Below, in pieces: positions 15,191 to 30,472 of a DNA stretch of 64,000 bases. Where the stretch lies: the NCBI GenBank assembly GCA_910577095.1, contig CAJTLY010000004.1:51021-115020 (forward strand). The letters are read 5' to 3'. Numbering within the stretch: position 1 is the stretch's first letter; each line of letters opens with the position of its first letter. Source of the stretch: an uncultured Alphaproteobacteria bacterium. GTDB taxonomy: Bacteria; Pseudomonadota; Alphaproteobacteria; RF32; CAG-239. The translations under genes were made by a program, and so were the position numbers. The notes under the pieces are model-generated. The model did no database searches and was not told the origin of the DNA. It saw only the letters and a program-made list of their open reading frames with translations.

Positions 15191-15219
15191 TTGACTAATT
15201 AAAAAAATCCGGTTATTAA
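15191..15219 (+). promoter_or_regulatory. candidate sigma70 promoter for tRNA-Leu (-35 TTGACT, 17-bp spacer, -10 TATTAA)
   Basis: Hexamers sit about 10 nt upstream of the mature tRNA 5' end. Confidence 0.4.
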
Positions 15220-16220
15220 AATATCCGTTGCCCTGATGGCGGAATTGGTAGACGCGCAAGTTTCAGGTACTTGTGACCGGTTTGGTCGTGGAAGTTCGAG
15301 TCTTCTTCAGGGCACCAATCTTGACAACCTCCTAAATTTGATAGGAGGTTGAAGTTTTTTCTCATTGAAATAACTGGATTTTTCCCTTCCATAAAAAAGT
15401 TCGCAAAAACAATATTTAAAATTCGTCTTTTTTCTTCAATTTGCGAACTTTTGAAAATCTCATAAGAATTTTGACTAAAATTCAATACCTTATCAATAGC
15501 TCTCTCCACAGAAGTATCAGGAGCTTGCAATGATTGAATTTTATTTTGTAAGTCAATCTTTTGCATTTCATATTCAGCATTTTTACTACGATATACTTCA
15601 GCAGATATAGTTTCTGCAATTAACAAGTCTAAAAGTTTCTTCTGTTTTTGTTCAACATCAGACAATTCATTTTTGCTTTTTTCTAATTGATAACTTGTTC
15701 TTCCGTGAGTTATCTCATATTGTTTTTTCAAACGAGTTGCTAAGCTAGCCTTTAAATCATCATCAAAACTAATGGATAAAAGAGATTTATGAACTTCGTT
15801 CAAGATAATTTGCTCACTAACATTGGTGCAATGCTCACAATCTTTCAGTTCTGTATGTCTTAAATAAACATACTTACCTTTTTTAGTGTATGGAGAAAGT
15901 AAGCAACCACAATATTTGCAACGGACTAATCCTCTAAAAATATAGGGTTCTTTAGTATGTTTTGAAGTTCTTTTGAATTTTCCTGTTCTTATTTCTGTGC
16001 ATTTGTCAAAAAGCTCTTTAGAAATAAGCTTCTCATAGATATGAGGAAAAAAAGTTTTATTGTAAAACATCACACCATAATAGAATGGATTTTGCAAAAC
16101 ACTTGCAAATTGTGATTTTGTCATTGGGTTTCCACTCTTACGATTTTTTAATCCCCATTGCTTAGATTTTTTAACCAATTCATCCATTGAGAATAGCCCA
16201 GTTGAGTATTCCTCAAACAA
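15216..16220 (-). CDS. large serine recombinase, C-terminal part (recombinase domain, zinc ribbon, coiled coil); frameshifted relative to the N-terminal ORF
   Basis: Zinc ribbon RCKYCGCLL...DCEHC followed by a coiled-coil segment. The ORF runs antisense through the tRNA-Leu gene, so the true C-terminus is uncertain. Confidence 0.6.
   Translation of the reverse strand: MFEEYSTGLFSMDELVKKSKQWGLKNRKSGNPMTKSQFASVLQNPFYYGVMFYNKTFFPHIYEKLISKELFDKCTEIRTGKFKRTSKHTKEPYIFRGLVRCKYCGCLLSPYTKKGKYVYLRHTELKDCEHCTNVSEQIILNEVHKSLLSISFDDDLKASLATRLKKQYEITHGRTSYQLEKSKNELSDVEQKQKKLLDLLIAETISAEVYRSKNAEYEMQKIDLQNKIQSLQAPDTSVERAIDKVLNFSQNSYEIFKSSQIEEKRRILNIVFANFFMEGKNPVISMRKNFNLLSNLGGCQDWCPEEDSNFHDQTGHKYLKLARLPIPPSGQRIF
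15230..15317 (+). tRNA. tRNA-Leu (anticodon CAG), class II with long variable arm
   Basis: Acceptor stem GCCCTGA/TCAGGGC, discriminator A, CCA end. Anticodon stem CAAGT/ACTTG with loop TTCAGGT (anticodon CAG). Long variable arm and a GTTCGAGTC T-loop region. Confidence 0.85.
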
Positions 16221-16780
16221 TTTTTTATTATAGGTCCTCTTTCAGGGTCAATAATAATTGTTTTCTTTCCCTTTTCATCTCTCACATTTAAATAACCAAT
16301 AGGTGCAGGACCGGGAAGTAAACCTTCTTTAAGCATTCTTTCCTCAGACCTTCTTACATTATCTCTGGTTGAATTAACAAACATATTTGCAGATAAAATT
16401 TGCATTTGCCACATTGCCAAATCAGAACTCTTAAAGTTCTTATCAATCACAAGTCCTTCCTTAAAGAAATGAAGAGCAAGTTTTCCTTTCTTCACAAGTT
16501 CTAAAAGCATTGGGAATTCATTAAAAGTTCTTTGTAATCTGTCAACAGTATCAACTACAAGAGCAGTTAATTTAGTCTGATGCTTGATGTAATTCACTGC
16601 TTCATAAAATTTAGTCCTTTTTCCGTGGAAAGAACTTTCCACAAAAGTAAATTCTTTTGCTATTTCCAGACCTTTTATTGAGCAATAGTTGCGTAACCTA
16701 TCTAGTTGAGCATCTAAAGAGAATCCATCCTCTTGCATTTCGGTGGATACACGAGCTAGAACAACAGCTTTCATATCCAT
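16148..16780 (-). CDS. large serine recombinase, N-terminal resolvase-type catalytic domain; frameshifted, joins ORF 15216..16220 at an A6/T6 homopolymer (16221-16226)
   Basis: MDMKAVVLARVSTEMQEDGFSLDAQ... contains the catalytic Ser motif. The two ORFs overlap 16148-16220 in different frames. Confidence 0.6.
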   Translation of the reverse strand: MDMKAVVLARVSTEMQEDGFSLDAQLDRLRNYCSIKGLEIAKEFTFVESSFHGKRTKFYEAVNYIKHQTKLTALVVDTVDRLQRTFNEFPMLLELVKKGKLALHFFKEGLVIDKNFKSSDLAMWQMQILSANMFVNSTRDNVRRSEERMLKEGLLPGPAPIGYLNVRDEKGKKTIIIDPERGPIIKNCLRNTQLGYSQWMNWLKNLSNGD

Positions 16781-17732: not shown

Positions 17733-18005
17733 ATGAATAAATCAACAATGAATAACCAACTTAATTTAGTCATAGATGTAGCAAATAATTTAATCAAAGA
17801 AGGAAAAATAAATAGTTTTCGTGAATTTAGCTGCAAATATTTAAATAAATGCAGTAATTACCTTGGAACATTAGTTTACCAAAACAAATATCCAAGTATA
17901 GCATCTATTTTAACCTTATATCTTAAATTAAATCAGGAAAAACAGATGTCAAATTGGCAAAATAAACTGCTAGGTATATTAAAAAATTCTATTATTAAGG
18001 AGTAA
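17733..18005 (+). CDS. hypothetical protein (island cargo)
   Basis: 90-aa AT-rich ORF, tightly coupled to the following ankyrin gene. Confidence 0.3.
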   Translation: MNKSTMNNQLNLVIDVANNLIKEGKINSFREFSCKYLNKCSNYLGTLVYQNKYPSIASILTLYLKLNQEKQMSNWQNKLLGILKNSIIKE

Positions 18006-18007
18006 AA

Positions 18008-18634
18008 ATGAATGAGGGTAAAGATTATACAAGAAGAATTATAGATAATGCAGTAAGGGAAGATAGAAAAGATATCGGATATTTAGAAGATGAATTAGAA
18101 TTAATTGATATAGATGATTTATCATATTTTTATGAAGATAGGAAAAATAACATATTCAATATTTTTTTGACAAGTAAGTCATATCATTTACTTCTTCAAA
18201 TGTTAGATAGAGCCCTAATAAATCAAAATTTGAAAAATGGATATTCCTTAGCATCTGCGGTTGTTTGTAATTCAAATCTTCAACAATTTCAAAAAATCAT
18301 TGTATTAAGGAAAATGCTAAATTTAGGTTTTAATATAAATTGGAGAGATAAAAATAAAGAAACAATTTTATATCAAAGTATTAGACGAAACCTAAAAGAA
18401 ATTTCTATTTTTCTTTTAGAAAATCAAGCAAACCCCAATATTGGTAATGAGTTTAATGTTACACCTTTAATGATTGCTGGGTATAATGATATGATATACC
18501 TATCCTCATTACTAATTTATTATGGTGCTGATATAAATGCTAAAACAAAAATCAATAATTTGAGTATTAAAGATATCATAAGAGAATCAATAGGATTCAA
18601 TGTAGAAAATTTAATGACTGAATTTAATGATTAG
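18008..18634 (+). CDS. ankyrin-repeat protein
   Basis: Tandem ANK-like repeats: ...ETILYQSIRRNLKEISIFLLENQANPNIGNEFNVTPLMIAGYNDMIYLSSLLIYYGADINAKTK... Confidence 0.6.
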   Translation: MNEGKDYTRRIIDNAVREDRKDIGYLEDELELIDIDDLSYFYEDRKNNIFNIFLTSKSYHLLLQMLDRALINQNLKNGYSLASAVVCNSNLQQFQKIIVLRKMLNLGFNINWRDKNKETILYQSIRRNLKEISIFLLENQANPNIGNEFNVTPLMIAGYNDMIYLSSLLIYYGADINAKTKINNLSIKDIIRESIGFNVENLMTEFND

Positions 18635-18694: not shown

Positions 18695-19030
18695 TTACTG
18701 TAAATTTGCAGATACTTCAAATTTTACACTACCTATCTGAATTCTAATAGAATTTGGATAGAAATCTAGTAAGTAGCTATCACAATTCTTAAATTTTTTA
18801 ATTAATTTATGTAGTAATGCATAATCCGAAATAGTGTATATTGCCCTTAATTTATGTTCTTCACTTATATGATTTAAGACACTTATTGGCATTTCAATGT
18901 TTCTATACACGAAAATAATGTTATCTTCATATATCTCAATATAAAGAGTAGATTTTCTACCACCTCTTAAATTTTTAGTTATATGAGACAACTGTTTGCG
19001 TAAATCTTCTCCCAATACTTCAAATAGCAT
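18695..19030 (-). CDS. hypothetical protein (last gene of the helicase/MTase operon)
   Basis: 111-aa ORF 12 nt downstream of the helicase gene on the same strand. Confidence 0.3.
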   Translation of the reverse strand: MLFEVLGEDLRKQLSHITKNLRGGRKSTLYIEIYEDNIIFVYRNIEMPISVLNHISEEHKLRAIYTISDYALLHKLIKKFKNCDSYLLDFYPNSIRIQIGSVKFEVSANLQ

Positions 19031-19042
19031 AATAGTTCCTTT

Positions 19043-22000
19043 TTACTTAAAAACCTTATCTAAATCTTTTTCCAGAGTTCCTTTTTGAACAGAAGGTAAA
19101 GTGTCAAATAATCTTAAATTATGTTTATCAATACTCATTTTCTCATCAAAACCTAAAATATAAGCAGTTGCAATACGATAGATAATTTCTGTTGGAGCTA
19201 AACCATAAACTTGATTTGCAAAAATATGTTCTAATCTTTCTTGTTCATTTGGATATTTTTGTTTCAAATTACTGCTATTAAATAGTCTTTTTACAATTTC
19301 TGTAATGTAGAGACCTGATTTCATATATAAATCAATAAAAGTTCTATCTGAATTTTCAAAACATTCAGGACATTCTTTTTCTAAATTATCAACCATTTCT
19401 TTTACAACTTTTTTAGGAGTATAGATTTGGTTTGTTTTTTGCGGTGGAATATAATCAAATATATCTTCTATCTGTTCTTCATCAAAATAATTACTTAATT
19501 TAGTTCTTAAATTTAGAAATTCTTTTACAGAATCATTAAAGACTACTGGGTCAAATAAATTTCCAGCATAATGTTTTGTTTCACCTGTTTTATCATCTAC
19601 ATAATCCCCACCATCTCTTAAAAATCTAAATTCATCAAGAGTTATGCTGGTAACTTCCTTAAATACTTCATTTGGAATAATTGTATCAAAATTCTCTAAT
19701 GTTGTATTTTCGTCTCCATAAGCCATTAAAAATGAGGGGATTGTTCTTGAAAAACCTCTTAAATGGTCTCGAACACCTTCTTCAATACTTTTCTTTTCTC
19801 TTTGTTTAATGTCTGTTTCTGTTATTTCTACAATTGTCTTACCAGCTTCGTGAACGACTTGATTAATTGAATTCTTTAATGTTTCAGCTAGATTATTTTC
19901 AACAATAGATTTGGTTGCATCAAATTTTTGGTTAATAGCAGCTATTTCTTTTTCATTTTTTGCTTGCTTGATTTCTACATTTCTGTCTCGTTCAAGTCTT
20001 TCAATATCAATTTTATAAGAACCAAATTGTTTTTCAAAAGTTCTTTCGGCATCAGCATTTAATGTTTGAATCAGTTTCTTTTGAGCAGATTTGCTTAAAT
20101 CTTTTCCATATTCTTTTTTCGCAATTTCAATCATTGCCGAAGTTCCTATATGAAATTTTTCTTTCAAATCTTCTTTGATTTCATCAACTTCTTTTTTACT
20201 TTGAATTTCATCTTTTATTGTTTCAACTGTTTTAACTAGTTCATCTTCAATATTATTATATAATTTTTCTCCAAATATATCTGTAGCTTTACCAATAACC
20301 ATTTCCGATGGCAATTCAATTTCTCCCTCAGTATTAATATTGAGTTTATCTTTTGTTTCGGATGTAACTCCGATAGGCTCTTTTTGCGGGGTGAAATTTT
20401 GTATTATATCAATAACTTCTTTTGGAGCATTAAAGATATTACTGATATTTTGGAATAAAAAATTGCACATAAAGCCCTTACGAACAACTTCTTTTGCATA
20501 AATTTTACGAGGGATGGCAAGAACTTTTTCTGCATCAAGAGTTATCATTTCTCCTTCGTCATCTTCACCATACACGGGGAAGAAGTTAATTAACTCTCTG
20601 ATGTTTTGCTTACGGTCGTCTATACTTCCTTTACCAGCAGAAGTTGTAGTGTTTAAATCATTAGCAAATTGTTCAAAAACAACTAATGTTCGAGCAGGGT
20701 CAAAATCAAATACATAAGCATTTTCTTTACGAAATTGCTGTTGTCCATATTTAAATAAACAAGGATTCTGAGCTCTAAAAGCAGCTTGCATATATAGAGC
20801 AGGACTTTTTACATTGCTTAGCATTAATACAGCAGTCCATTCCGGCACAGTAACTCCTGTTGTTAATTGTCCAACAGAAATTGTAATTGTCTTGTCATTT
20901 TCTTTGATTGCCTTTACAACTTTATCAAAGGACTTTTGATTTTCTGTATCCTCATCTAAATTACCATCACCAGCAACTAGGACTATTTCATATTCCCTAA
21001 ATATTGGATGTTCTTTCAATTTCTTTGCTAATGCTTTGGCACTATCAACACGATTTAACAGCCAAAAAGTATGTCGTAATTCATTTCTAAGTTCTTCTGT
21101 TGAAAATGGAAATTTTGTTTGAGTGGTTAATGCTTCTAAAAATTTATCTACATCAGCATCATATTTGAATGAGCCATTTGAATTAGTGATGAAGAACTCA
21201 TTTAAATCAAATGCATAGCTTTCTGTTTCTCCATCATCATCAAAATCAGCACCTTTTTGTAGCTTATCTCTAATGATTTCAGACATTTGATAAGTATAAA
21301 GATTTAATTGAGGTAGAGTAGAATAAGGATTTTCTTCTTCTTTTGTTTCGTCCCATTCTTTTTTTGCCTTTTGTTCATCAGCATATGTCCAGTTGTATAC
21401 AGCTTTTTCTTCAAATTTTGAATTAGCCAAAGCTCTAAAAGGAGTTCCTGATAAATGAAGAGTATATTTCCTTTTTATATTATCAAAAGCAACATCAGCC
21501 CTATATGTATCAATACCTTCGTGAGACTCATCAATAATCAACAAATCCCATTTTAATTGGGCAATATGCTTTAATTTGTCATATTTTCCACCAAAATCTA
21601 TTGCACCTTTAAGGTCTTGTAATGATATAAATTCTATATATTTTCTTGCTGAGGGTGGTAAATTTTCTCTTTTTACAACACAAGGTTTGTTTTTTAGTGT
21701 ATCAACCTGACTAACAAAAAAGTAACCAGATTGAGTTCCAAAAAATTTTTCATAATCACTATACCACGAGGTTGCAATAGCTGGACGATGTGTAACTATT
21801 AGAACTGTTTTAGCATCTAATTGTTTACATAAATCATATGCTGAAAGAGTTTTACCAAATCGAGGTTTTGCATTCCATAAAAACTCAGGCTCATCATCTG
21901 CATATTGTTGAAAATATGATTTTGCTTGCTGCACAGCTTTTTGCTGTTCTGTTCTTAATTTATATTCTATTACGACATCTGTTTGAGCAATTCCTCTATT

Positions 22001-22336
22001 TGCCCTAAATTCATCGAATCGTTGCTTGGATGTTTGAGGTAGGATATGAAACCATTCTGTTCCTATTTTTCTCTCAATTCCAATTTTTTTCAAATAACAA
22101 TGAAAATCAGTATCGTGAAAAATATCTCCTGAACCATCATCATATATAGCATTGGCTTTCCACTCTATTTTATACTCTATATCAGCAGTTTGGGTTTGTT
22201 GCCTAACACGAGTTTCAACATCTTGTTCTGTAAAGCCTATCTTAGTCCAACCATTATGAGTAGCAATTTGAGGAGTAGTGTAGGCATAACACATAGGTAT
22301 TACTTTTTTGCTTGTCTTGATGTTGATTTTAGCCAT
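19043..22336 (-). CDS. GIY-YIG-like (T5orf172/MUG113) nuclease domain fused to an SF2 helicase; putative restriction/defence enzyme (Type III Res-like role)
   Basis: N-terminal GWTKIGFTEQDVETRVRQQ (T5orf172-type GIY-YIG core). Walker A NAKPRFGKT, DExH box LLIIDESHEG, motif III LSGTPF. Long C-terminal region of about 500 aa. Immediately downstream of the MTase ORFs on the same strand. Confidence 0.6.
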   Translation of the reverse strand: MAKINIKTSKKVIPMCYAYTTPQIATHNGWTKIGFTEQDVETRVRQQTQTADIEYKIEWKANAIYDDGSGDIFHDTDFHCYLKKIGIERKIGTEWFHILPQTSKQRFDEFRANRGIAQTDVVIEYKLRTEQQKAVQQAKSYFQQYADDEPEFLWNAKPRFGKTLSAYDLCKQLDAKTVLIVTHRPAIATSWYSDYEKFFGTQSGYFFVSQVDTLKNKPCVVKRENLPPSARKYIEFISLQDLKGAIDFGGKYDKLKHIAQLKWDLLIIDESHEGIDTYRADVAFDNIKRKYTLHLSGTPFRALANSKFEEKAVYNWTYADEQKAKKEWDETKEEENPYSTLPQLNLYTYQMSEIIRDKLQKGADFDDDGETESYAFDLNEFFITNSNGSFKYDADVDKFLEALTTQTKFPFSTEELRNELRHTFWLLNRVDSAKALAKKLKEHPIFREYEIVLVAGDGNLDEDTENQKSFDKVVKAIKENDKTITISVGQLTTGVTVPEWTAVLMLSNVKSPALYMQAAFRAQNPCLFKYGQQQFRKENAYVFDFDPARTLVVFEQFANDLNTTTSAGKGSIDDRKQNIRELINFFPVYGEDDEGEMITLDAEKVLAIPRKIYAKEVVRKGFMCNFLFQNISNIFNAPKEVIDIIQNFTPQKEPIGVTSETKDKLNINTEGEIELPSEMVIGKATDIFGEKLYNNIEDELVKTVETIKDEIQSKKEVDEIKEDLKEKFHIGTSAMIEIAKKEYGKDLSKSAQKKLIQTLNADAERTFEKQFGSYKIDIERLERDRNVEIKQAKNEKEIAAINQKFDATKSIVENNLAETLKNSINQVVHEAGKTIVEITETDIKQREKKSIEEGVRDHLRGFSRTIPSFLMAYGDENTTLENFDTIIPNEVFKEVTSITLDEFRFLRDGGDYVDDKTGETKHYAGNLFDPVVFNDSVKEFLNLRTKLSNYFDEEQIEDIFDYIPPQKTNQIYTPKKVVKEMVDNLEKECPECFENSDRTFIDLYMKSGLYITEIVKRLFNSSNLKQKYPNEQERLEHIFANQVYGLAPTEIIYRIATAYILGFDEKMSIDKHNLRLFDTLPSVQKGTLEKDLDKVFK

Positions 22337-22341
22337 AGTTC

Positions 22342-23328
22342 TTACTCCATAGGTTTAATCATAGTTTCAATGAAATCTATTTCTTCTTGGGTCAAACCAT
22401 ATTTCTTGTAAAGTTTCTCGTCAGTCCAAGATTCGTTAAAGTTTAGCCAAGGAACAAATTGGAAATTATTTATCGAAATATTCATCCCTGATAATGTTTG
22501 TAAAATCAAAAATCTAACAAATTTTGTCCTCAAATAATGATATATATTTTCTGTTTGTTCTTTATTTGTTGTTGGGCATATAATTAAATAGGATTGGTTA
22601 CAAATTTGATTAGGTTTTAATATTTCCATTCGACTTAAAACACGATACATTCCATTTTTATCAGGATTTCCAGCGTGCTCACAAGATAATTTTGAAATCA
22701 TAGTTTTATATAGGTCAATATTGTTTTTACCTTTTTCTACTTTGTTCCTTTCAACAAAGCCCCAACCTTTACTACTTACTATTTCACAGTCATCACCATT
22801 GGTTTTTTGGTCTGTTCCCTTAAAAGTTGATAAAAAACCAAAAGGAGTTTGGGGGCTACATCCTCCATCGTTTGATAGAAAGTTATTAGTAGAATTGGTA
22901 ACTTTATTAATTATAGAAATAGCCTCATTTCTTCGGATAAAGATTTTATGTTCATTTAATTTTCTTGAATATAATTTTCTTCCATTTTTATTTACACTAG
23001 TAAATTTGCATAATCCTTTATAAGCCTTATTCCAAAGGAAATAACAAATTCCTCCATTGATATCTACATTAGGAAAGCAATAATTCGAATCTATAAAATC
23101 TACAATTGTTTGAATTCTATCATCATTTAACATTTTTTCTCTAAAATCATCTAAGCCAACACCTCCTGAAAACCATCTGGCCGGAATAATCATTGTTAAT
23201 GCTGAAGGATTAGATTTTAAAGCTTCATCTACAAATTTTTGATAAAGGGGAATTGCTCCTAGACCTTTTCCAGCTTCATTAACTTGCATTTGATATGGAG
23301 GATTTCCTACAATATAATCAAATTTCAT
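22342..23328 (-). CDS. N6-adenine DNA methyltransferase, catalytic motif IV (NPPY) part
   Basis: Begins MKFDYIVGNPPYQ... Its ATG overlaps the stop of the upstream ORF (ATGA). Confidence 0.6.
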   Translation of the reverse strand: MKFDYIVGNPPYQMQVNEAGKGLGAIPLYQKFVDEALKSNPSALTMIIPARWFSGGVGLDDFREKMLNDDRIQTIVDFIDSNYCFPNVDINGGICYFLWNKAYKGLCKFTSVNKNGRKLYSRKLNEHKIFIRRNEAISIINKVTNSTNNFLSNDGGCSPQTPFGFLSTFKGTDQKTNGDDCEIVSSKGWGFVERNKVEKGKNNIDLYKTMISKLSCEHAGNPDKNGMYRVLSRMEILKPNQICNQSYLIICPTTNKEQTENIYHYLRTKFVRFLILQTLSGMNISINNFQFVPWLNFNESWTDEKLYKKYGLTQEEIDFIETMIKPME

Positions 23329-24407
23329 TTTTTATTTCCTTTCAAAAGGTAAAATTCAACAGCACCACTTTTATCTCGCCAATTTTTTATTTTGCAAAAC
23401 ATTGGAGGGTTGCTTTTCGGTAAATTGTTAAAAAGCTCTAATTGTCTGTCATCTTCATTGGAATCGCTAAAAGGAGCTGTATCTGTAAGCCCATCCATCT
23501 GCCAAATGTTCCACGCAATTACATTGGCTATTTGTTTGATTTGTGTTAGTGTTGGTTGTCTTTTGTGTTTGAATTTAAAGTTATCAATAAATGTCCAAAG
23601 AAGATTTTCTCTTGCTAAAAGCAAGTTATCTCCTTGGTATTCATAGCCATAAGTGGCTTCATATGCTCGTTTTGCCCAATTAAACCAATCTGTTTCATTT
23701 GTTGTATTTTCATTAACTATGCGAAGTTTTCTATCTAAAAGACCAATTCTTTTCTCTATTGGCAAAAACTCTCCGGTAGTTGTGTCATATCTGGAAACAA
23801 GATAAGGTGCTTCACCACAGGTTATTTCTAATCTTTTTGAATCAACATATTTCATCCAACCTTCTTTTTTGCTTTTCTTATCTTCTGCAAATTGTATAGG
23901 TTCTGTTGTTGGTATCCAATCGTGACCATTTGGGGTATTAAATACATTGGAATAACCAAACCATTCTTCATCACAATGGTTGTTCATTTCATTACAAATC
24001 CAAGAAGGAGTAAAAACCTCAGCCGATTTACGAGTTCTGTTTATTTGTTCATCTTTGGTTTTTGATATTCTTGGTTGGATTATTCTAGTGTTATCTTTGG
24101 TAATAAGTTCCGGAAGTATTTCTTTTTCAGCAGTATAGGCTTCTCCATATTTGGCATATTCATCACAAGCAAAACGAATGTATTTTCCGGTTGTCTTATC
24201 TTGAAGCAAGATTTTTAATAAAAAAGGACTAAGTTCTTCAATATCTTGCTCTAATATATCAATGTCTTCATCTTTTGATGCTGTAACATCATCTTTATAA
24301 TCTTCTAAATTGTAAATTTGAGCATATGAATCCCATCCCCTTACTTGTTTGCTTAAGGGTGTTTCTTTTTCTAATAGTGATATATTATTACTGACACATT
24401 CTAACAC
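23325..24407 (-). CDS. N-terminal partner/segment of the DNA methyltransferase (motif X-like VFTPSWI; degenerate motif I-like LEITCGEAPYL)
   Basis: 360-aa ORF ending ...GNKK* in an A6 tract directly before the next ORF's ATG. Combined length with the next ORF is about 689 aa, typical for Type III Mod proteins. Confidence 0.45.
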   Translation of the reverse strand: MLECVSNNISLLEKETPLSKQVRGWDSYAQIYNLEDYKDDVTASKDEDIDILEQDIEELSPFLLKILLQDKTTGKYIRFACDEYAKYGEAYTAEKEILPELITKDNTRIIQPRISKTKDEQINRTRKSAEVFTPSWICNEMNNHCDEEWFGYSNVFNTPNGHDWIPTTEPIQFAEDKKSKKEGWMKYVDSKRLEITCGEAPYLVSRYDTTTGEFLPIEKRIGLLDRKLRIVNENTTNETDWFNWAKRAYEATYGYEYQGDNLLLARENLLWTFIDNFKFKHKRQPTLTQIKQIANVIAWNIWQMDGLTDTAPFSDSNEDDRQLELFNNLPKSNPPMFCKIKNWRDKSGAVEFYLLKGNKK

Positions 24408-24422
24408 TGGGCTAATTCACCA

Positions 24423-24600
24423 ATTAACCCACCCTATTTTAGGGAATACTCATTTAAAATATTAATTTTGTGGGAATATGCTTATTTTCAAAGCATAAGA
24501 TAAGATTCTAATTGATTATTTTAGATTAATTTGTATGATATCAGAAGCGAGATAATTAATTGGTGAATTAATTATCTCGCTTATTTTTTTATGTATTTTT
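24423..24600. promoter_or_regulatory. inverted-repeat region between the MTase operon and the invertase gene: 15-bp IR (taattcaccaattaa ... ttaattggtgaatta) plus a perfect 15-bp-arm hairpin and a T-run
   Basis: IR copies at 24423-24437 and 24566-24580. Hairpin gcgagataattaatt-ggtg-aattaattatctcgc at 24557-24590, followed by ttattttttt. Confidence 0.45.
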
Positions 24601-24628: not shown

Positions 24629-25231
24629 TTGAATATGATATATGGATATATAAGGGTTAGCACACAAACTCAGGTCTTAGAGAACCAAAGATTAGCAATT
24701 TCAACATATTGTGAAGCAAATAATATAGAAATTAATAAGTGGGTAGAAGAAAAAATATCTTCAAGAAAACCTCTAAAAGAAAGAAAACTAGGCAAATTAC
24801 TCAAAAAGCTCAAAAAAGGAGATATCTTAATTGCATCAGAACTAAGTAGGCTTGGGCGTAATTTGTTAGAAGTTATGGGTATTTTGAAGGAATGTTTAGA
24901 AAGAGAGTGCCAAATATGGACATTAAAAGAGAACTATCGTCTTGGTTCTGATATCCAAAGCAAAGTTCTTGCTTTTGCTTTTAGTTTGGCTGCAGAAATA
25001 GAAAGACAACTTATTTCTGAAAGGACAAAAGAAGCTCTAAAAAGAGTTAAGGCAGAAGGAAAGCACCTAGGTCGTCCTTTCGGTCGTAAAAGTGCTTTCA
25101 ATGATTTAAAGAAAAATAAAGAGCGAATTCTACAATTGGCAGAACAAAATATTCCTAAAACACAAATAGCCAGAATGTTTAAGGTTGATAGAAGCACTAT
25201 TAGAAGGTTTATAAACCAACATAAAGATTAG
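24629..25231 (+). CDS. small serine recombinase (DNA invertase/resolvase family) with C-terminal HTH
   Basis: MNMIYGYIRVSTQTQVLENQ... (catalytic Ser), ...GKHLGRPFG..., C-terminal HTH ...KTQIARMFKVDRSTIRRF... Confidence 0.75.
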   Translation: MNMIYGYIRVSTQTQVLENQRLAISTYCEANNIEINKWVEEKISSRKPLKERKLGKLLKKLKKGDILIASELSRLGRNLLEVMGILKECLERECQIWTLKENYRLGSDIQSKVLAFAFSLAAEIERQLISERTKEALKRVKAEGKHLGRPFGRKSAFNDLKKNKERILQLAEQNIPKTQIARMFKVDRSTIRRFINQHKD

Positions 25232-25247
25232 AGAAATAGTGCATTAA

Positions 25248-25808
25248 CTATCTTTTTTTCAAATAACTGTAAACTGTAGGTCTAGTGATTTTAAATTGTT
25301 TTGCAATCCGAGAAATAGGCATTCCTTGACTATGCATATTATTTAATTCAGTAATTTGCTCACTACTTAGTTTGTTTTTTCCACCTTTGTATTTCCCTTT
25401 AGCTTTTGCTATTGCAATACCCTCTCTTTGTCTTTCTAATAGAATAGCCCTTTCAAGCTCTGCAACAGCTCCTAACATAACCATCATCATTTTTTGATAG
25501 GGGTCTTGTTTTTCATTTTCCTTAAAAGTCAGGTTTTCTTTATGAAAAATAATAGTAGCTCCTTTTGAGGTTATTTTTTCTACAAGATTCAATAAATCAC
25601 GAGTGTTACGAGCCAAGCGACTCATCTCGTGTATGTTAATGATATCGTTTGCCCTAATATTTGCCAACATTGCTTGTAACTGAGGACGATTGGTATCTTT
25701 ACCACTAATTTTTTCTTCATACACTCTGTCACAAGCAACATCTTTTAGTTGTCGTTCTGTGTTTTGCTCAATTGAAGAGACTCGTATATAATTAAATATC
25801 ATTGCCAT
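25248..25808 (-). CDS. small serine recombinase (resolvase/invertase family)
   Basis: MAMIFNYIRVSSIEQNTERQ..., ...GKYKGGK..., HTH ...ISRIAKQFKITRPTVYSYL... Convergent with the previous recombinase, 16-bp gap. Confidence 0.75.
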   Translation of the reverse strand: MAMIFNYIRVSSIEQNTERQLKDVACDRVYEEKISGKDTNRPQLQAMLANIRANDIINIHEMSRLARNTRDLLNLVEKITSKGATIIFHKENLTFKENEKQDPYQKMMMVMLGAVAELERAILLERQREGIAIAKAKGKYKGGKNKLSSEQITELNNMHSQGMPISRIAKQFKITRPTVYSYLKKR

Positions 25809-25906: not shown

Positions 25907-26024
25907 AGGGTATGCTTGGGTTTGTCAATTTAAATGAAGAGTTATAAGGGAATAAATTAATTCTATAGACTCTTTGGTATATTATAATATAATTGTTCCA
26001 TCAAAATATTGTATGAGGTATTTT

Positions 26025-28328
26025 ATGGTTGCAATTAAATCAATTAAAGAAATTAAAAATTTTGCATCTTTTGAAAATTTCGATGCCTCCATATCTCCAT
26101 ATAAAAATTTTCAAAAGTATAATATATTTTATGGATTAAATGGCAGTGGAAAAACAACTTTATCAAGATTATTATCATTTTTAAATGTAGGGAAAATACC
26201 TGATGATGAAGAAAGCAAAGAACAGTATCAAGATTTTAATCAATTGAAATTTAAAATAGAACTTGATAATGATGATATTGTTACGGTCTTCGATAATAAC
26301 CAACTAATAAATAAAATAAGAGTTTTTAATTCTGATTTTGTTAGTAGAAATGTAAAATTAGAAAAAGCAACAACTAAATCACTAATCTATAATATTAGCG
26401 AAAAATCAGATAAATTAAAAACAAAAAGAAAATATTATGAAAAAAATATATCTTATTGGCATAACAAAGATAACCAGTTAATTATAGATAAAAATATAGA
26501 AGAAAAAGATAAGATTCTTCAAAATAAATACCAAGATTTAGCAAGGGAAATAAAATACCTATTAAATTTATCAAATAGTTTTAACAAAAATTCTGTTAAA
26601 GACTTATTTAATCAACTTACTCAATGCAAAGAATTATCTGATGAAGAATTTCAAAAATTTGTTGCTATTTCTAAACAAGATGAAAAATATCTACTCGATA
26701 TTAATTTTGATAATTTAAGTGTTAATAGTCTGAAAAAAGATGAATTTGATGAATTGAAGAAAATTTTATTAACAAAAAAGACCAGAAATACAGGAGAAAA
26801 AGAAACTGTAATTAATTGGATATCAGATGGGTTGAAAATACATCAAAATGACCACACCAAATGCAAGTTCTGTTCTCAAGAGATACATCACGATTTTTGG
26901 AAAACTAGATTAAGTGAGATAGAACAGATTTTAAAAAAAGATATTGAATTTGAAACATTTGAACAAAATATAAGACAAATTATAAATAGACTAGACAATA
27001 AAATAAGATTTATAGATACATTTGATGTTAATATTACTAGCAATCAATTTTTGATACAATATCAAAAACAAGCTGAGTTGATTCTCTGCAAAATTAAAGA
27101 ATTGAAATCCCAAAGCAGACAATCACTTGAAATTATAAAATCATTATTTGAGAAAAAGTTATTTCAATTAGATGAGGCTATCGTTTTAGAAGATAGTGTT
27201 TTTGATTTGTCATATTTTTCAGAATGTAAAAAATTAAATCTTCTTATTCAGAGTAATAATATAGAATGTAATGAATTGAGTAAAATTAAAGAAGATGCTA
27301 AAAATAAAATTATTTCTTCTATATTATTTCCTCATATGGGAGAAGTGGCTAGAATAAAAAGCTATTTGGCAAAAGCTAATACAACAAAAGTTATGATTGC
27401 AGATAGAATTAGTAATTATCAAATAAAATTAGCTACTATTATAAAAGAATTAAATAATCAAAAAGTTGCTATAAATGAGATTGAAAACATTTGCGAACAA
27501 ATTTTTGGATATAAGAAATTTTCTTTTACTTTTGATGAGAATCTTAAATCGTATAAAATTACTAGAACTGGTAAAACATCTGCAAGAAACATCAGTGAAG
27601 GAGAACAAACAGTAATAGCATTTGCATATTTTATAGCTTGCTTAAAAGAAGGTAATTTTAACAGAGAAGAAGGGATTGTTGTTATAGATGACCCAGTATC
27701 AAGTTTAGACCAACAATATCTTTTTAATATTTACGTGGTGTTAATGAGAGAAGTTTTAAAGGAGAATTTGTGTTCTCAGGCATTTATTCTTACTCATAAT
27801 TTTTATTTTTTTAGAAAAGTACGAAATTGTTTAAAAAATATTTCTAAACTTAAGGATGAAACGAAAAAACAAACTTATGAAAATACATATGTTTCTGTTT
27901 ATTCTATTGAGAAAACGAATGGAAAAAGTGTTATTAAAGATGCATCAAAATATTTATTAAATTATGAAACAGAATATTTACATTTAATAAGAAAATTAAA
28001 TAAAGACCTTGTAGAAGCAGATAATGAATTTTCAGATGTGGGAGTTGGCAATGCTATTAGACAAGTGTTAGAAATATTTTTATCATTTAAATGTCCTGAT
28101 AAAAATAATCTTTTTACTAGATTTCAGAATGTAACTCCCAAACCAGATAAAAAATTTAAATATTTATATGATTTGGTAAATTCAATGAGCCATACAGATG
28201 AAATAGATACAGAAGTTGTAAACGGTGCTTATAAAAGGATTGCAGGAAAAAGTGACATCCAAGAGCTATTTGATTTTATCAAAGAAATTGATGCAGAGCA
28301 TTATGAAAAAATCAAAAAAATTGTTTAG
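26025..28328 (+). CDS. RloC-like ABC/AAA_13 ATPase with coiled-coil CxxC zinc hook; putative anticodon-nuclease-type abortive-infection protein
   Basis: Start chosen at MVAIKSIKEI with a GAGG SD 7 nt upstream. Walker A YGLNGSGKTTLSRL. CxxC HTKCKFCSQE inside a long coiled-coil insertion. Signature/D-loop VVIDDPVSSLDQQYL. About 767 aa. Confidence 0.5.
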   Translation: MVAIKSIKEIKNFASFENFDASISPYKNFQKYNIFYGLNGSGKTTLSRLLSFLNVGKIPDDEESKEQYQDFNQLKFKIELDNDDIVTVFDNNQLINKIRVFNSDFVSRNVKLEKATTKSLIYNISEKSDKLKTKRKYYEKNISYWHNKDNQLIIDKNIEEKDKILQNKYQDLAREIKYLLNLSNSFNKNSVKDLFNQLTQCKELSDEEFQKFVAISKQDEKYLLDINFDNLSVNSLKKDEFDELKKILLTKKTRNTGEKETVINWISDGLKIHQNDHTKCKFCSQEIHHDFWKTRLSEIEQILKKDIEFETFEQNIRQIINRLDNKIRFIDTFDVNITSNQFLIQYQKQAELILCKIKELKSQSRQSLEIIKSLFEKKLFQLDEAIVLEDSVFDLSYFSECKKLNLLIQSNNIECNELSKIKEDAKNKIISSILFPHMGEVARIKSYLAKANTTKVMIADRISNYQIKLATIIKELNNQKVAINEIENICEQIFGYKKFSFTFDENLKSYKITRTGKTSARNISEGEQTVIAFAYFIACLKEGNFNREEGIVVIDDPVSSLDQQYLFNIYVVLMREVLKENLCSQAFILTHNFYFFRKVRNCLKNISKLKDETKKQTYENTYVSVYSIEKTNGKSVIKDASKYLLNYETEYLHLIRKLNKDLVEADNEFSDVGVGNAIRQVLEIFLSFKCPDKNNLFTRFQNVTPKPDKKFKYLYDLVNSMSHTDEIDTEVVNGAYKRIAGKSDIQELFDFIKEIDAEHYEKIKKIV

Positions 28329-28331
28329 GTT

Positions 28332-28988
28332 TTAGTTTTTTACAAAATCTCTCATAGCTTCAATTAATTCATCAAAATTGGTAGAGGGTCTTATTCTCCA
28401 ATCTCCTAATTTGGAATTGTTTGTTCTTAATTTTTTAGCCCTTGAGATAGCTTTATCTTCATTATCATTAACCAGCATTAAATCTATATCAAACCTTTTG
28501 TTGGTTTTTGCATTATATCTAGGAAGATATATTTTTAATTCTTTTTCCAACTCATTTTTGGTGGTTGGTGTTTTATCTGAAAAATGCATCAAAGCCCACA
28601 ATTCAACAGACCTATTAGAACAAATGACTTTAATATTATTGTCTTTTGCTTCCTCAAAAGCCTTGTCAAAATTCTCTTTATCTTTCCCTCCTATGCTTCT
28701 ATCATCTTCATCAAACACAGCATAAAAAGTATCTAAATAATTTTTTGCTGGTTTCTTTGCTTCAATTAAATTTTCAACAATTTTTAAAGGTTCCGATTCA
28801 TATTTTGAAGCCACAATTTCAAATTTAGTCATAGCTTTAATATGATTTACACCATTTTTAGCAGCAAAATTTCTAATCCAATCAGTTAAATATTGTGGTT
28901 CAGTTACATCACCTTCGGTAAAAATAACCATTTTGGAAGCACTTCTTTCTTTTCTATTGTGCCTATTTTTTCTATCTAAACTAACCAT
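28332..28988 (-). CDS. RloB-like/TOPRIM-like protein (AbiLii/AriB-type partner)
   Basis: ...MVIFTEGDVTEPQYL... matches the RloB N-terminal 'vcEGekTEpnYf' motif. A DxD-type acidic motif AVFDEDD is present. Immediately downstream of the ATPase gene with a 4-nt gap. Confidence 0.65.
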   Translation of the reverse strand: MVSLDRKNRHNRKERSASKMVIFTEGDVTEPQYLTDWIRNFAAKNGVNHIKAMTKFEIVASKYESEPLKIVENLIEAKKPAKNYLDTFYAVFDEDDRSIGGKDKENFDKAFEEAKDNNIKVICSNRSVELWALMHFSDKTPTTKNELEKELKIYLPRYNAKTNKRFDIDLMLVNDNEDKAISRAKKLRTNNSKLGDWRIRPSTNFDELIEAMRDFVKN

Positions 28989-28991
28989 TAG

Positions 28992-30272
28992 CTATTCCTT
29001 TGCTTCCAAAATATTAGCTAATTCATTAATATCTCCCAAATATGGAATTGCTCCGAATCTGCCCTCTAAATAGCCTTTTTCATAATTAAAGCCTTCTCTG
29101 ATAGCCTTAAATTCAGTTAAAGGATAAACCTCAGAACATCCTTCTTCATTCTTTTCAACAAACCAAATTTCATCTCTCTTGAGAATATTTGATTTAAGGA
29201 TGGAAGTATTATGAGTGGTAAAAATAAGCTGTGCCCCACCAATATTAATATTGGGGTTATTAAACATCTCAACAATTTTAGCCAGCATCATCGGATGTAA
29301 CTTTTCTTCAAGCTCATCAATAATATAAATTCCACCACCAACTAAAATTGGAACAAACATAACCAAGTATTTTGCAAACTGCCCAGTCCCCCAGCTTTCT
29401 GAAGAAATAGGTAATTCATACTTTTTATTGTTTACCCCAATATGTTCAAAGTTAATTTTATAATGTTTTCCGGTTGGAGAGGTAGTAAAAGGTAGTGCAG
29501 ATGAATCTTTTTCTTCTTCAACTTTAATATCTGTAATTCCCAAATCTGCATATTTAATTAACTCAACAACTTTCTTATGCAAGGATTTGTCCTGATAAAT
29601 CTTTTCTGCCAAGCTATCCATATTAAACATTGTTTCTAAGATATTTATAAAAGTAACCTTACAAATATCTTTTAAGGCCTCAAAAATATTATGAATATAA
29701 GAAATTCCTCTTGTATCCAAAATATCAAGAACAAGCAAATCCTGTCTTTTGCCTAAAGAATCTTCTATATATTTAATATCAAATTTTGATATAATTTCTT
29801 TGTATGGTTTGTAAATATTGCTTTCAACTCTATCATAAATGACTTTTTTATTTTTATTCTGATATTCTGTTAAGTTTTCTGTCAGTATTCCTGTTTTATC
29901 AAAGCTAAATGATAAAATATATCTAATATCATCAAGACAGAAGTCTATTTCTATAGATGATGGTCTTGATGCAGATTCGTCATCTAATAAAAATGGCTTA
30001 TAAAATTCAAATGATGGTTTACTATCTGTTTTTCCTAACAAAGGCAAGACAATATCATTAAACACTTTAACAATATTGCTCTTTCCGGAAGCATTGGCTC
30101 CATAAAATGCAGTAACAGGAGTAATCAAATCATCTCCAATAGCATTAACTCTTCTAATATAAGATGTCGGGGTATTGCTATATTTAGATTCCGCTGTAAA
30201 AAATATTTCCTGTTCATCTTTAAACGACAAGATATTTGCAAATTTAACTCTTAATAAATTTACTTTAGCCAT
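28992..30272 (-). CDS. AAA_21/ABC-type ATPase (AbiLi/AriA-type)
   Basis: Start chosen at MAKVNLLRVKF with a GGAG SD. Walker A GANASGKSN. Walker B/D-loop IYIIDELEEKLHP. ...LIFTTHN... (H-loop). Confidence 0.65.
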   Translation of the reverse strand: MAKVNLLRVKFANILSFKDEQEIFFTAESKYSNTPTSYIRRVNAIGDDLITPVTAFYGANASGKSNIVKVFNDIVLPLLGKTDSKPSFEFYKPFLLDDESASRPSSIEIDFCLDDIRYILSFSFDKTGILTENLTEYQNKNKKVIYDRVESNIYKPYKEIISKFDIKYIEDSLGKRQDLLVLDILDTRGISYIHNIFEALKDICKVTFINILETMFNMDSLAEKIYQDKSLHKKVVELIKYADLGITDIKVEEEKDSSALPFTTSPTGKHYKINFEHIGVNNKKYELPISSESWGTGQFAKYLVMFVPILVGGGIYIIDELEEKLHPMMLAKIVEMFNNPNINIGGAQLIFTTHNTSILKSNILKRDEIWFVEKNEEGCSEVYPLTEFKAIREGFNYEKGYLEGRFGAIPYLGDINELANILEAKE

Positions 30273-30472
30273 TTTTTTGCTCCGGCAGTTGTTGTTTGTA
30301 ATCAAAATATAGAAATAAAAAGCAAAAAAATCAACACTTTTATTTAAAATTCGTAAAAAAATTACAAATTTTTATAAAAAACATCATTTTTTTTGATTTT
30401 ATTTTTGCAAATACTCTTAAAATAATGTAATATACCAAACATAAAATAACACTATTTATTAGGAGAAAAAAT

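Follow-up and report, generated by a model that had tools for sequence, protein, structure and literature searches.

The 64,000-nucleotide (nt) stretch of DNA analysed here, referred to as the window, comes from an uncultured gut alphaproteobacterium of the CAG-239 lineage (GenBank assembly GCA_910577095.1, contig CAJTLY010000004.1, positions 51,021 to 115,020) and carries a 5.4-kb operon on its minus strand (19043-24407). Taken as a whole, the evidence is best explained, and in our judgement probably correctly, if this operon encodes a complete restriction-modification (R-M) system resembling the Type ISP enzymes, with a methylase stably split between two polypeptides, one of which (ORF2) is shared with the restriction enzyme, and with an invertible segment (inverton) as its likely switch. 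The operon consists of three closely packed open reading frames (ORFs) in the order ORF3, ORF2, R protein:

19043-22336, minus strand: R protein, a helicase-nuclease encoded by an ORF of 1097 amino acids (aa)
22342-23328, minus strand: ORF2, 328 aa, starting MKFDYIVGNPPYQ
23325-24407, minus strand: ORF3, 360 aa, with a GTG start at 24407 and ending ...LLKGNKK before its stop codon

An earlier interpretation made from the letters alone (the sequence-only reading) had listed these ORFs, their motifs, and the run of six adenines (A6) with an ATGA overlap at the ORF3/ORF2 junction, all of which are present as listed, and its proposal of an R-M-like module is borne out by the domain matches described below. 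It had not recognized the second methylase N-half at the C-terminal end of the 1097-aa protein.

An AlphaFold2 (AF2) model of the R protein, built on a 52-sequence alignment, had a predicted local distance difference test score (pLDDT) of 85.7 and a predicted template modelling score (pTM) of 0.77. Four regions are distinguished:

21992-22336, minus strand (R aa 1-115): T5orf172/MUG113 (GIY-YIG superfamily) nuclease domain, modelled as beta-beta-beta-alpha-beta-alpha with pLDDT about 90
20387-21964, minus strand (R aa 125-650): superfamily 2 (SF2; ResIII/SNF2-like) ATPase motor, matching ResIII with E 5.4e-15 and modelled as two RecA lobes
19748-20308, minus strand (R aa 677-863): coupler-like region of four long helices, modelled with pLDDT about 85-90
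19046-19474, minus strand (R aa 955-1097): N-half', the second and apparently degenerate methylase N-half, recognized from natural fusions, hhalign and the AF2 model

The fusion of an N-terminal T5orf172/GIY-YIG domain to an SF2 motor, already proposed by the sequence-only reading, was confirmed. The T5orf172-type GIY-YIG core GWTKIGFTEQDVETRVRQQ lies at residues 29-47, and the window protein scores 19.1 bits against T5orf172, just below the cut-off of 20; among family members, T5orf172 (PF10544) is matched by 28 of 37 and MUG113 (PF13455) by 25 of 37. Five residues (Y17, K32, G34, D75 and E94) do not vary, and R43 and H79 reach at least 90% conservation. These family matches and conserved residues, together with the predicted secondary structure, mark the N-terminus as a putative nuclease domain of the T5orf172/GIY-YIG type. 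The GIY-YIG superfamily includes T5orf172, one of whose members, Gp88/Odn of phage ICP1, is reported to be an origin-directed nuclease (PMC8263062). The motor contains the motifs PRFGKT (aa 158-163), IIDESHEG (aa 267-274) and LSGTPF (aa 295-300); K162 of Walker A, D269, E270, Q517 and R521 are conserved, and H272 is at least 90% conserved. When the complete model was compared with known structures using Foldseek, the top match in the PDB was LlaBIII (4xqk; about 1090 columns, E 7e-12), with further matches to ZorD, Snf2/Chd1, HsdR of EcoR124I, and SauUSI.

The methylase is encoded by the two upstream genes. ORF3 matches the PADLOC model MTase_II PDLC03390 end to end over its 327 positions (E 1.9e-105) and contains motifs X (AEVFTP), I (LEITCGEAPYL), II (YGYE) and III (NIWQMDGL), of which motif I resembles that of M.TaqI. 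Its invariant motif residues align with those of the small N-half proteins found at class B loci (see below), which themselves match Pfam N6_Mtase and MmeI_Mtase, and we assign ORF3 on these similarities as a stand-alone N-half, or S-adenosylmethionine (SAM)-binding lobe, of a gamma-class N6-adenine methyltransferase. ORF2 matches Pfam Eco57I (PF07669; E 1.2e-20) over profile positions 73-171 only, carries motif IV (GNPPYQ) at residues 8-13, and matches two PADLOC models, MTase_II PDLC03375 and the C-terminus of the 1359-position REase_MTase_IIG PDLC03626, the middle of which is matched by the helicase of the R protein. ORF2 is the catalytic, NPPY-bearing C-half of the methyltransferase joined to a CamA-like DNA-recognition domain. 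The motifs thus run X-I-II-III on ORF3 and then IV on ORF2, placing the SAM-binding motifs and NPPY on separate polypeptides, and because relatives carry both fused, ORF3 and ORF2 are parts of one domain. The earlier assignment of the upstream ORFs as an N6-adenine methyltransferase therefore holds, in the form of two halves of one enzyme. A scan of NCBIfam yielded no useful name, and profile searches against PDB sequences with the N-terminal domain, the ORF3 family and the class B tail gave no real match, the one hit to Mfa2 being spurious.

The C-terminal region of the R protein is related to ORF3. N-half' contains a motif X (NQIYTPKKVV), a variant of motif I (FIDLYMKSGLY) and YGLAP at the position of motif II, and the R protein terminates exactly where motif IV would start. 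AF2 predicts a three-strand half-Rossmann fold at residues 975-1097. Alignment of N-half' with the ORF3 family by hhalign (E 1.3e-4, probability 54%) placed motifs X, I, II and III in collinear order, while BLASTP and Pfam scans of the R C-terminus against ORF3 returned nothing, so that the kinship is visible only through profile-profile comparison and natural fusions. Within the motif I sequence D-L-Y-x-K-S-G, the conserved K1006 occupies the position of the invariant G198 of ORF3, and the motif II glutamate of ORF3, E256, has no counterpart. By these substitutions N-half' looks degenerate, with SAM binding probably lost.

The meaning of a second N-half emerged from the relatives of the operon. 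A search of 1.84 billion representative proteins returned 3099 relatives of the helicase protein (50% identity representatives), which fall into length classes of about 1100 aa and about 1360-1560 aa. A genome scan with the helicase alignment confirmed relatives in 578 stretches, and the best 80 loci, each from another species, were surveyed; they come from Alphaproteobacteria, Melainabacteria, Firmicutes, Actinobacteria, Spirochaetes, Bacteroidetes and a Methanocorpusculum metagenome-assembled genome (MAG). Among these 80, all loci whose upstream DNA was present place the N-half first, then the C-half and then the helicase. In the long class (P0254, P0268, P0270, P0290 and P0321), the equivalent of N-half' runs straight into (M/L/V)KFDxxIGNPPYQ, after which come a variable domain, the target recognition domain (TRD), and then ...YGLSxEEIxFIE. 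Pfam N6_Mtase covers N-half' and C-half together in 14 of 14 long-class fusions. An AF2 model of the last 500 aa of P0270 (pLDDT 82, pTM 0.77) matched CamA best (E 9e-18, TM 0.56), followed by BREX BrxX/PglX, BpuSI, LlaGI/LlaBIII and DrdV. All long-class genes examined overlap an upstream gene of 244-306 aa that encodes a canonical N-half only, with motifs GEVFTP, LEPAAGEGxF, YGIE and NIxQGNFL. This arrangement, in which the helicase protein is fused to the C-half (1430-1455 aa), is termed class B; the hosts examined were Caldibacillus, Clostridium tetani, an Anaerolineaceae MAG, and plasmids of Loigolactobacillus and Lactiplantibacillus, and the free N-half is kept even on a plasmid of 11.6 kb. 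Three layouts can be written, with fusions marked by a tilde:

Window type: N, C, R-N'
Fused methylase: N~C, R-N'
Class B: N, R-N'~C

Constant across these layouts is a gene content of two N-halves to one C-half, from which, following Rosetta-stone logic, contacts between the C-half and both N-halves would be expected.

Some members of the family deviate from these layouts or lie in other surroundings. P0241 (1381 aa) has another C-terminal extension of about 285 aa instead of the NPPY half; this extension contains DFKVSK, which resembles a PD-(D/E)xK motif, and may represent a variant with a second nuclease. Loci L001-L003 carry a fused 724-aa methylase and a co-directional resolvase near a terminase gene and a ParB-N6_N4 methylase gene, and a human-faecal phage record (MT835780.1) encodes a helicase protein that is 62% identical; given this terminase neighbour and the phage record, some family members are phage-borne. 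An apparent upstream difference between L001 and L002/L003 was considered as an inversion and rejected, the DNA being identical and only the gene calls differing.

The junction between ORF3 and ORF2 reads GGAAATAAAAAATGAAATTT (also written GGAAATAAAAAATGAAA, with the same A6 and ATGA stop/start overlap), and contains the following element:

23328-23333, minus strand: A6 run at the ORF3/ORF2 junction

A Shine-Dalgarno (SD)-like AAAGGA lies about 10 nt 5' of the ORF2 ATG, and the ATGA overlap would fit translational coupling of the two genes. In silico, one additional A creates an ORF3-ORF2 fusion of 688 aa, as the sequence-only reading had foreseen, and the removal of two creates one of 687 aa; relative L014, which has A7, is naturally fused. 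Runs of six or more adenines are no more frequent in the 5.4-kb operon (14 observed) than in composition shuffles (12.7 +/- 3.3). The near-identical contigs L008-L011 have A6 in four of four cases, and 71 collection blocks index the 360-aa ORF3 product in exactly this form. Neither fusion product, A7 or A4, was found among about 15 billion proteins, while ORF3 and ORF2 are each present on 28 contigs. In other relatives the A-rich linker of Lys codons has A5 (L006, L012) or A6 (L013) in split methylases and A7 in the fused one (L014), but since ORF2 has its own start, such changes in length between relatives are not an ON/OFF switch.

The split proved to be the rule in the family. Nearly all of the top 120 ORF3 homologues, from Alphaproteobacteria, Muribaculaceae, Planctomycetia, Listeria, Priestia and others, are stand-alone proteins of 310-365 aa and only a few are fused; a hand count among the 80 surveyed loci gave roughly 36 split and roughly 24 fused methylases. 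The break falls at a constant position, directly before M-K-F-D-x-x-I-G-N-P-P-Y, and is made variously by in-frame TAA or TGA stops, short intergenic spacers, and overlaps of 4 or 11 nt, many of them without a homopolymer; in one clade the N-half ends ...KNEI before its stop codon, reading 11 nt into ORF2. An SD-like GGAG or AAGGA lies 6-12 nt 5' of the C-half ATG in split and fused forms alike. Because the break site is constant while the stop arrangements vary across phyla, the split is evolutionarily stable. From this comparison of sequences, we regard the two-ORF methylase as the normal, conserved gene organization and not as a recent frameshift, contrary to the sequence-only reading, and we reject a switching role for the A6 run at the window locus. 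At fused junctions, a Met behind an SD-like motif stands 0-3 residues before KFD in 26 of 26 cases, the corresponding residue in class B being M, V or L. The conserved Met of the fused methylases would fit internal initiation yielding a free C-half.

Repeat tracts of other kinds are present elsewhere in the family. L067 (1-55) and L074 (1-60) carry (CAACG)11 and (GCACA)12, respectively, exactly between N-half and C-half; in both, the C-half is without its own ATG and the contig ends in the repeat, and these lineages likely possess true slipped-strand phase variation. Poly-G tracts fall on the conserved DIKGG codons of the C-half in L041 (7246, G8), L059 (7259, G9) and L072 (7182, G8), leaving L072 in frame and L041 and L059 frameshifted. 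Four of four Collinsella aerofaciens loci (L066, L069, L070 and L071) share one defect, C4 for the expected C5 within the NPPY codons (GGTAATCCCCATATCAG). In L081 (6961-9136; Anaerococcus sp.), two tandem C-half genes lie between the N-half and helicase genes; they were considered as alternative specificities and rejected as such, being duplicates 94.5% identical. The split methylase pair of L005 (GCA_017935485.1, 7679-10001) has no listed gene in the NCBI MAG record, presumably because the pair was treated as a frameshifted pseudogene; if so, this is an annotation artefact and probably a family-wide one.

Comparison of the window with its close relative L006 revealed that the body of ORF2 is exchangeable:

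22414-23290, minus strand: exchangeable specificity cassette, the ORF2 body between GNPPYQ and ...YGLTxEEIxFIE

The flanks of this region (resolvases, ORF3, helicase and beyond) are 94% and 97.5% identical in DNA between the two, but no DNA similarity is found over 23290-22414, and the ORF2 proteins are 30% identical with conserved ends. The TRD type of the window is also present fused to the helicase protein in a class B relative. The L006 swap and the class B occurrence indicate that TRDs move as cassettes both between near-identical operons and between architectures.

Upstream of ORF3 lies a candidate switch, together with two recombinase genes:

24413-24570, no strand: inverton, 158 bp, with perfect 15-bp inverted repeats
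24512-24539, plus strand: promoter-like TTGATT-16 nt-TATGAT inside the inverton, from a consensus scan
24545-24582, plus strand: terminator-like hairpin, a palindrome with a 17-bp stem and a T-run, containing one inverton repeat
24629-25231, plus strand: ResA, a small serine recombinase (Pfam Resolvase 1.3e-34, and HTH_7)
25248-25808, minus strand: ResB, a second small serine recombinase (Pfam Resolvase 6e-36, and HTH_7)

The inverton repeats read TAATTCACCAATTAA on the plus strand at 24413-24427 and, as the reverse complement, TTAATTGGTGAATTA at 24556-24570. The segment is situated between ORF3 and ResA, its near end 6 nt 5' of the ORF3 GTG. ResA is divergent from the R-M operon, with its true start likely at the ATG at 24635; ResB is convergent with ResA and restricted to the closest relatives, L005-L011. 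The segment does invert: in L008 (Logan SRR31800350) exactly these 158 bp are flipped, with 1 mismatch in the remaining 5.4-kb operon, and L009 and L010 are 100% identical to the window over 5598 nt. The window orientation is found in L005-L007, L009 and L010, and L011 begins exactly at one inverton repeat, as expected of an assembly bubble. The repeats are kept in the more distant L005-L007, and a related core is present in L012. L029 and L035 have analogous repeats of 16-17 bp, 163-179 bp apart, adjoining divergent resolvases, and a resolvase lies directly upstream of the methylase gene in L001-L003, L012-L014, L016, L029, L033, L035, L037, L040 and L046.

The TTGATT-TATGAT site is directed toward the ResA gene in the window and into ORF3 in L008. 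Weaker promoter-like sites on the minus strand (24544-24515 and 24465-24436) point toward ORF3 in the window orientation, and the terminator-like hairpin lies downstream of TTGATT-TATGAT in the window orientation only, its extended palindrome being lost in L008. From this arrangement we infer that ResA would catalyse the inversion, and that inversion would re-orient promoter elements relative to the operon. The suspicion of the sequence-only reading that the locus is phase-variable is thus probably right with respect to the inverton and mistaken with respect to the A6 tract. Metagenome scans for the orientation of the inverton gave no match with a 25-mer and single chance matches only with the 15-mer repeat. 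A 26-nt inverted-repeat pair (17600-17625/24506-24531, 88%) that would bracket the operon, with one arm in the inverton, was also considered; since L005-L011 show no rearrangement, it was judged to be probably a chance match in AT-rich DNA.

In the mechanism that we propose, ORF3 and ORF2 would assemble into a two-subunit N6-methyladenine (m6A) methylase that protects host DNA, and ORF2 would also dock on the degenerate N-lobe of the R protein to form an LlaGI/LlaBIII-like enzyme reading the same site. On unmethylated DNA, this R-N':ORF2 enzyme would translocate with ATP and cut through its GIY-YIG domain. ORF2 would serve methylase and nuclease both, as HsdS does in Type I systems, and with its single TRD the recognized site would probably be asymmetric and continuous. 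Because one ORF2 serves both complexes in this scheme, a swap of its cassette would change methylation and restriction specificity together. The more particular idea, that the C-half and TRD polypeptide is shared by two alternative SAM-binding half-domains, a canonical free one for methylation and a degenerate tethered one for restriction, is offered tentatively, as something short of an even bet. Several points weigh against the scheme as a whole. The case for pairing in trans between ORF2 and the R C-terminus comes only from natural gene fusions and single-chain models, that for lost SAM binding in N-half' only from sequence, and the fused-methylase loci would require internal initiation to obtain a free C-half, for which the conserved Met is the sole hint. 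The related DnmA-YeeB-YeeC cluster of Bacillus subtilis showed no restriction or anti-phage activity (PMC9973331), and no experiment on any family member was found in the searchable literature. As for the inverton, a single inverted allele was recovered, and the promoter-like sites within it are at chance level (3 found, 3.1 expected).

Other explanations share parts of this evidence. N-half' might have no partner in ORF2, so that ORF3:ORF2 is the sole methylase fold and the R C-terminus an adaptor that attaches differently to the assembled methylase or to DNA, comparable to HsdR on M2S; its non-canonical motif I and II residues, the single C-half available to two N-halves in the operon, and the lack of an obviously free C-half at fused-methylase loci are all in keeping with such a role. 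In thousands of class B relatives, however, N-half' is covalently joined to the C-half, with which it is modelled and profile-matched as one methylase domain, and the free protein is the canonical N-half, and we consider an adaptor unlikely. Conversely, N-half' and ORF2 could form the active methylase, as in Type ISP enzymes, which methylate via their own domain (PMC3874165), leaving ORF3 an accessory or regulatory role, such as competition for ORF2 that would set the balance between methylation and restriction. The strong conservation of DLYxKSG and the invariant G1008 point to ligand binding and speak for this assignment, but the key glycine is replaced by lysine, the acidic residue of motif II is missing, and every architecture retains a canonical N-half as a separate protein, which would be difficult to understand if that protein were dispensable; we find this assignment quite improbable.

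The sequence-only reading had envisaged one mod gene of the Type III kind, which a frameshift in a slippery A6 keeps OFF and a change to A7 turns ON. One added A does fuse the ORFs, close relatives with A5 or A6 are split and the one with A7 is fused, and true repeats exist in other lineages (pentanucleotides in L067 and L074, G8 or G9 in L041, L059 and L072). Against this, A-runs like that of the junction are no commoner than chance would give and its length does not vary, the protein collections contain neither the A7 nor the A4 product, the split is the majority state with many non-homopolymer stops, ORF2 comes with an SD-like sequence and an ATG of its own, and the methylase is of the gamma class and not a Type III Mod. 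Slippage at A6 is already largely refuted, and we give it very little chance. A case for an R-M system in decay and no longer functional could be made from the frameshifted large serine recombinase of the surrounding island, from broken methylase genes in some relatives, such as those of Collinsella with C4 for C5 in the NPPY codons, and from the inactivity of B. subtilis DnmA-YeeBC (PMC9973331). Three intact ORFs with conserved catalytic residues, in an operon identical across independent samples, make decay hardly credible.

The Type ISP-like scheme that we favour can be placed among known systems. Type ISP enzymes are defined by a single chain containing an Mrr nuclease, a translocase, a gamma-methylase and a TRD (PMC3874165). 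The window system has the LlaGI/LlaBIII order of nuclease, SF2 translocase, coupler, gamma-class N6-adenine methylase and TRD, with the methylase domain completed by ORF2 in trans, or in cis in class B. In contrast to LlaGI and LlaBIII, its nuclease is T5orf172/GIY-YIG and not Mrr-type PD-(D/E)xK, it comprises three polypeptides (two in class B), its methylase fold is cut between motifs III and IV, and its motor-linked N-lobe is degenerate and accompanied by an additional canonical N-lobe protein. It is closest in its proposed working to Type ISP but fails two of the defining features, the single polypeptide and the Mrr nuclease. A further trait of the type is ATP-dependent translocation with collision cleavage between head-to-head sites. 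The Type III likeness perceived by the sequence-only reading extends to the presence of an SF2 helicase and was otherwise not upheld: LlaBIII is the best structural match, and the methylase matches Eco57I/N6_Mtase and not N6_N4_Mtase, Type III Mod being beta-class with motif IV before I. Moreover, the window nuclease is an N-terminal GIY-YIG domain and the C-terminus a methylase half-domain, where Res has a C-terminal PD-(D/E)xK nuclease.

The DnmA(YeeA)-YeeB-YeeC system, in which an MmeI-like methylase is combined with an SF2 helicase and a T5orf172/GIY-YIG protein, was proposed in 2009 to be Type I-like with single-strand modification (PMC2731913, PMC9973331), and a study of Vibrio crassostreae, as cited in PMC9973331, is described there as finding that dnmA and yeeB deletions affect phage sensitivity. 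The same three activities are encoded in one operon with the methylase gene first. Compared by architecture only, DnmA is an intact MmeI-like methylase with separate helicase and nuclease, whereas in the window one protein holds both nuclease and helicase, and the methylase comes in pieces, with part of it grafted onto that protein. With Type I systems (HsdR/HsdM/HsdS), the window operon has in common the motor-driven nuclease, TRD exchange and the proposed specificity subunit common to methylase and restriction complexes; unlike HsdS, the shared subunit also bears the catalytic NPPY half, has one TRD, and would be shared through half-Rossmann completion and not through an S-M interface. CamA is the best fold match of N-half' plus C-half, but enzymes of the CamA/M.TaqI type are single-chain orphan or Type II methylases with neither motor nor nuclease partner.

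Phase variation of hsdS by inversion is known (PMC7672463, PMC7641763), and epigenetic invertons, as reported, mostly rearrange the coding sequence of Type I hsdS genes (PMC7672463, PMC9881135). Like other gut invertons, that of the window is a short repeat-flanked segment beside a recombinase gene and upstream of an operon, with both orientations occurring naturally; unlike most of the epigenetic ones, its 158 bp are non-coding, precede a Type ISP-like operon, and have a small serine recombinase as candidate driver. The sequence-only reading had considered the module possibly undescribed. This is so to the extent that our literature search found no description of a split or shared-lobe architecture and no account of the mechanism of the family, but REBASE-derived PADLOC models cover all three parts, and the combination of methyltransferase, helicase and GIY-YIG was noted in 2009 (PMC2731913). 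What is new is a T5orf172-nuclease, Type ISP-like R-M system with a methylase in three parts; its pieces are already catalogued in the PADLOC models.

The operon lies in a low-GC island of the window (27-31% GC, about 14.5-31 kb, compared with 49% GC for the genome). Its flank gave no match to E. coli, and the records nearest to it are MAGs of gut Alphaproteobacteria. Directly adjacent to the R gene is a small ORF:

18695-19030, minus strand: unnamed ORF of 111 aa, 13 nt 3' of the R gene

It has no match in Pfam, NCBIfam or PADLOC, is found in L005-L012 and L014 only, and is probably lineage-specific cargo and not a core component. A DUF6626 protein (90 aa) and an ankyrin-repeat protein (208 aa), encoded at 17733-18634 on the plus strand, adjoin the operon and are kept in the closest relatives. 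The large serine recombinase of the island (15216-16780, minus strand) is broken into ORFs of 210 and 334 aa by a 1-nt deletion in an A-run near 16222, which is A6 in the window and A7 in L006, where the gene is intact (515 aa). This may be a genuine homopolymer frameshift that has immobilized the island, or instead a sequencing error. On the other side, a gene at 25974-28328 (plus strand) encodes a 784-aa AAA_13 ATPase that matches PADLOC PDC-S06 (E 7e-106) and, more weakly, PrrC, and by these matches it resembles RloC/PrrC. In L005 and L006 two unrelated genes (533 and 344 aa) occupy its slot, so that cargo has been swapped inside an otherwise 94-98% identical island. An AbiLi/AbiLii-like pair, consisting of an AAA_21 ATPase (437 aa) and an RloB-like protein (218 aa), is encoded at 28332-30305 on the minus strand and is, as far as such matches predict, a second defence system of the island.

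The family is large and has spread horizontally: it is known from at least 578 species of gut and food bacteria and one archaeal MAG, and from plasmids of lactic-acid bacteria, yet its only annotations are "DEAD/DEAH helicase" and "restriction endonuclease subunit M". Its conserved split will continue to be labelled a frameshift or pseudogene by annotation pipelines and by first readers. The arrangement of two N-lobes and one C-lobe poses a testable question, whether one recognition module serves both methylation and cleavage. If it does, the specificity for self and non-self would be coupled by complementation of a split Rossmann fold, with the free half in fused-methylase loci arising from internal translation initiation, and the family would represent a new R-M design, evolvable through a single cassette swap, in hundreds of species. 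It may also be a source of programmable, cassette-swappable m6A specificities. In the uncultured gut alphaproteobacterium of the window, the inverton would add a promoter-type epigenetic switch to the known hsdS shufflons.

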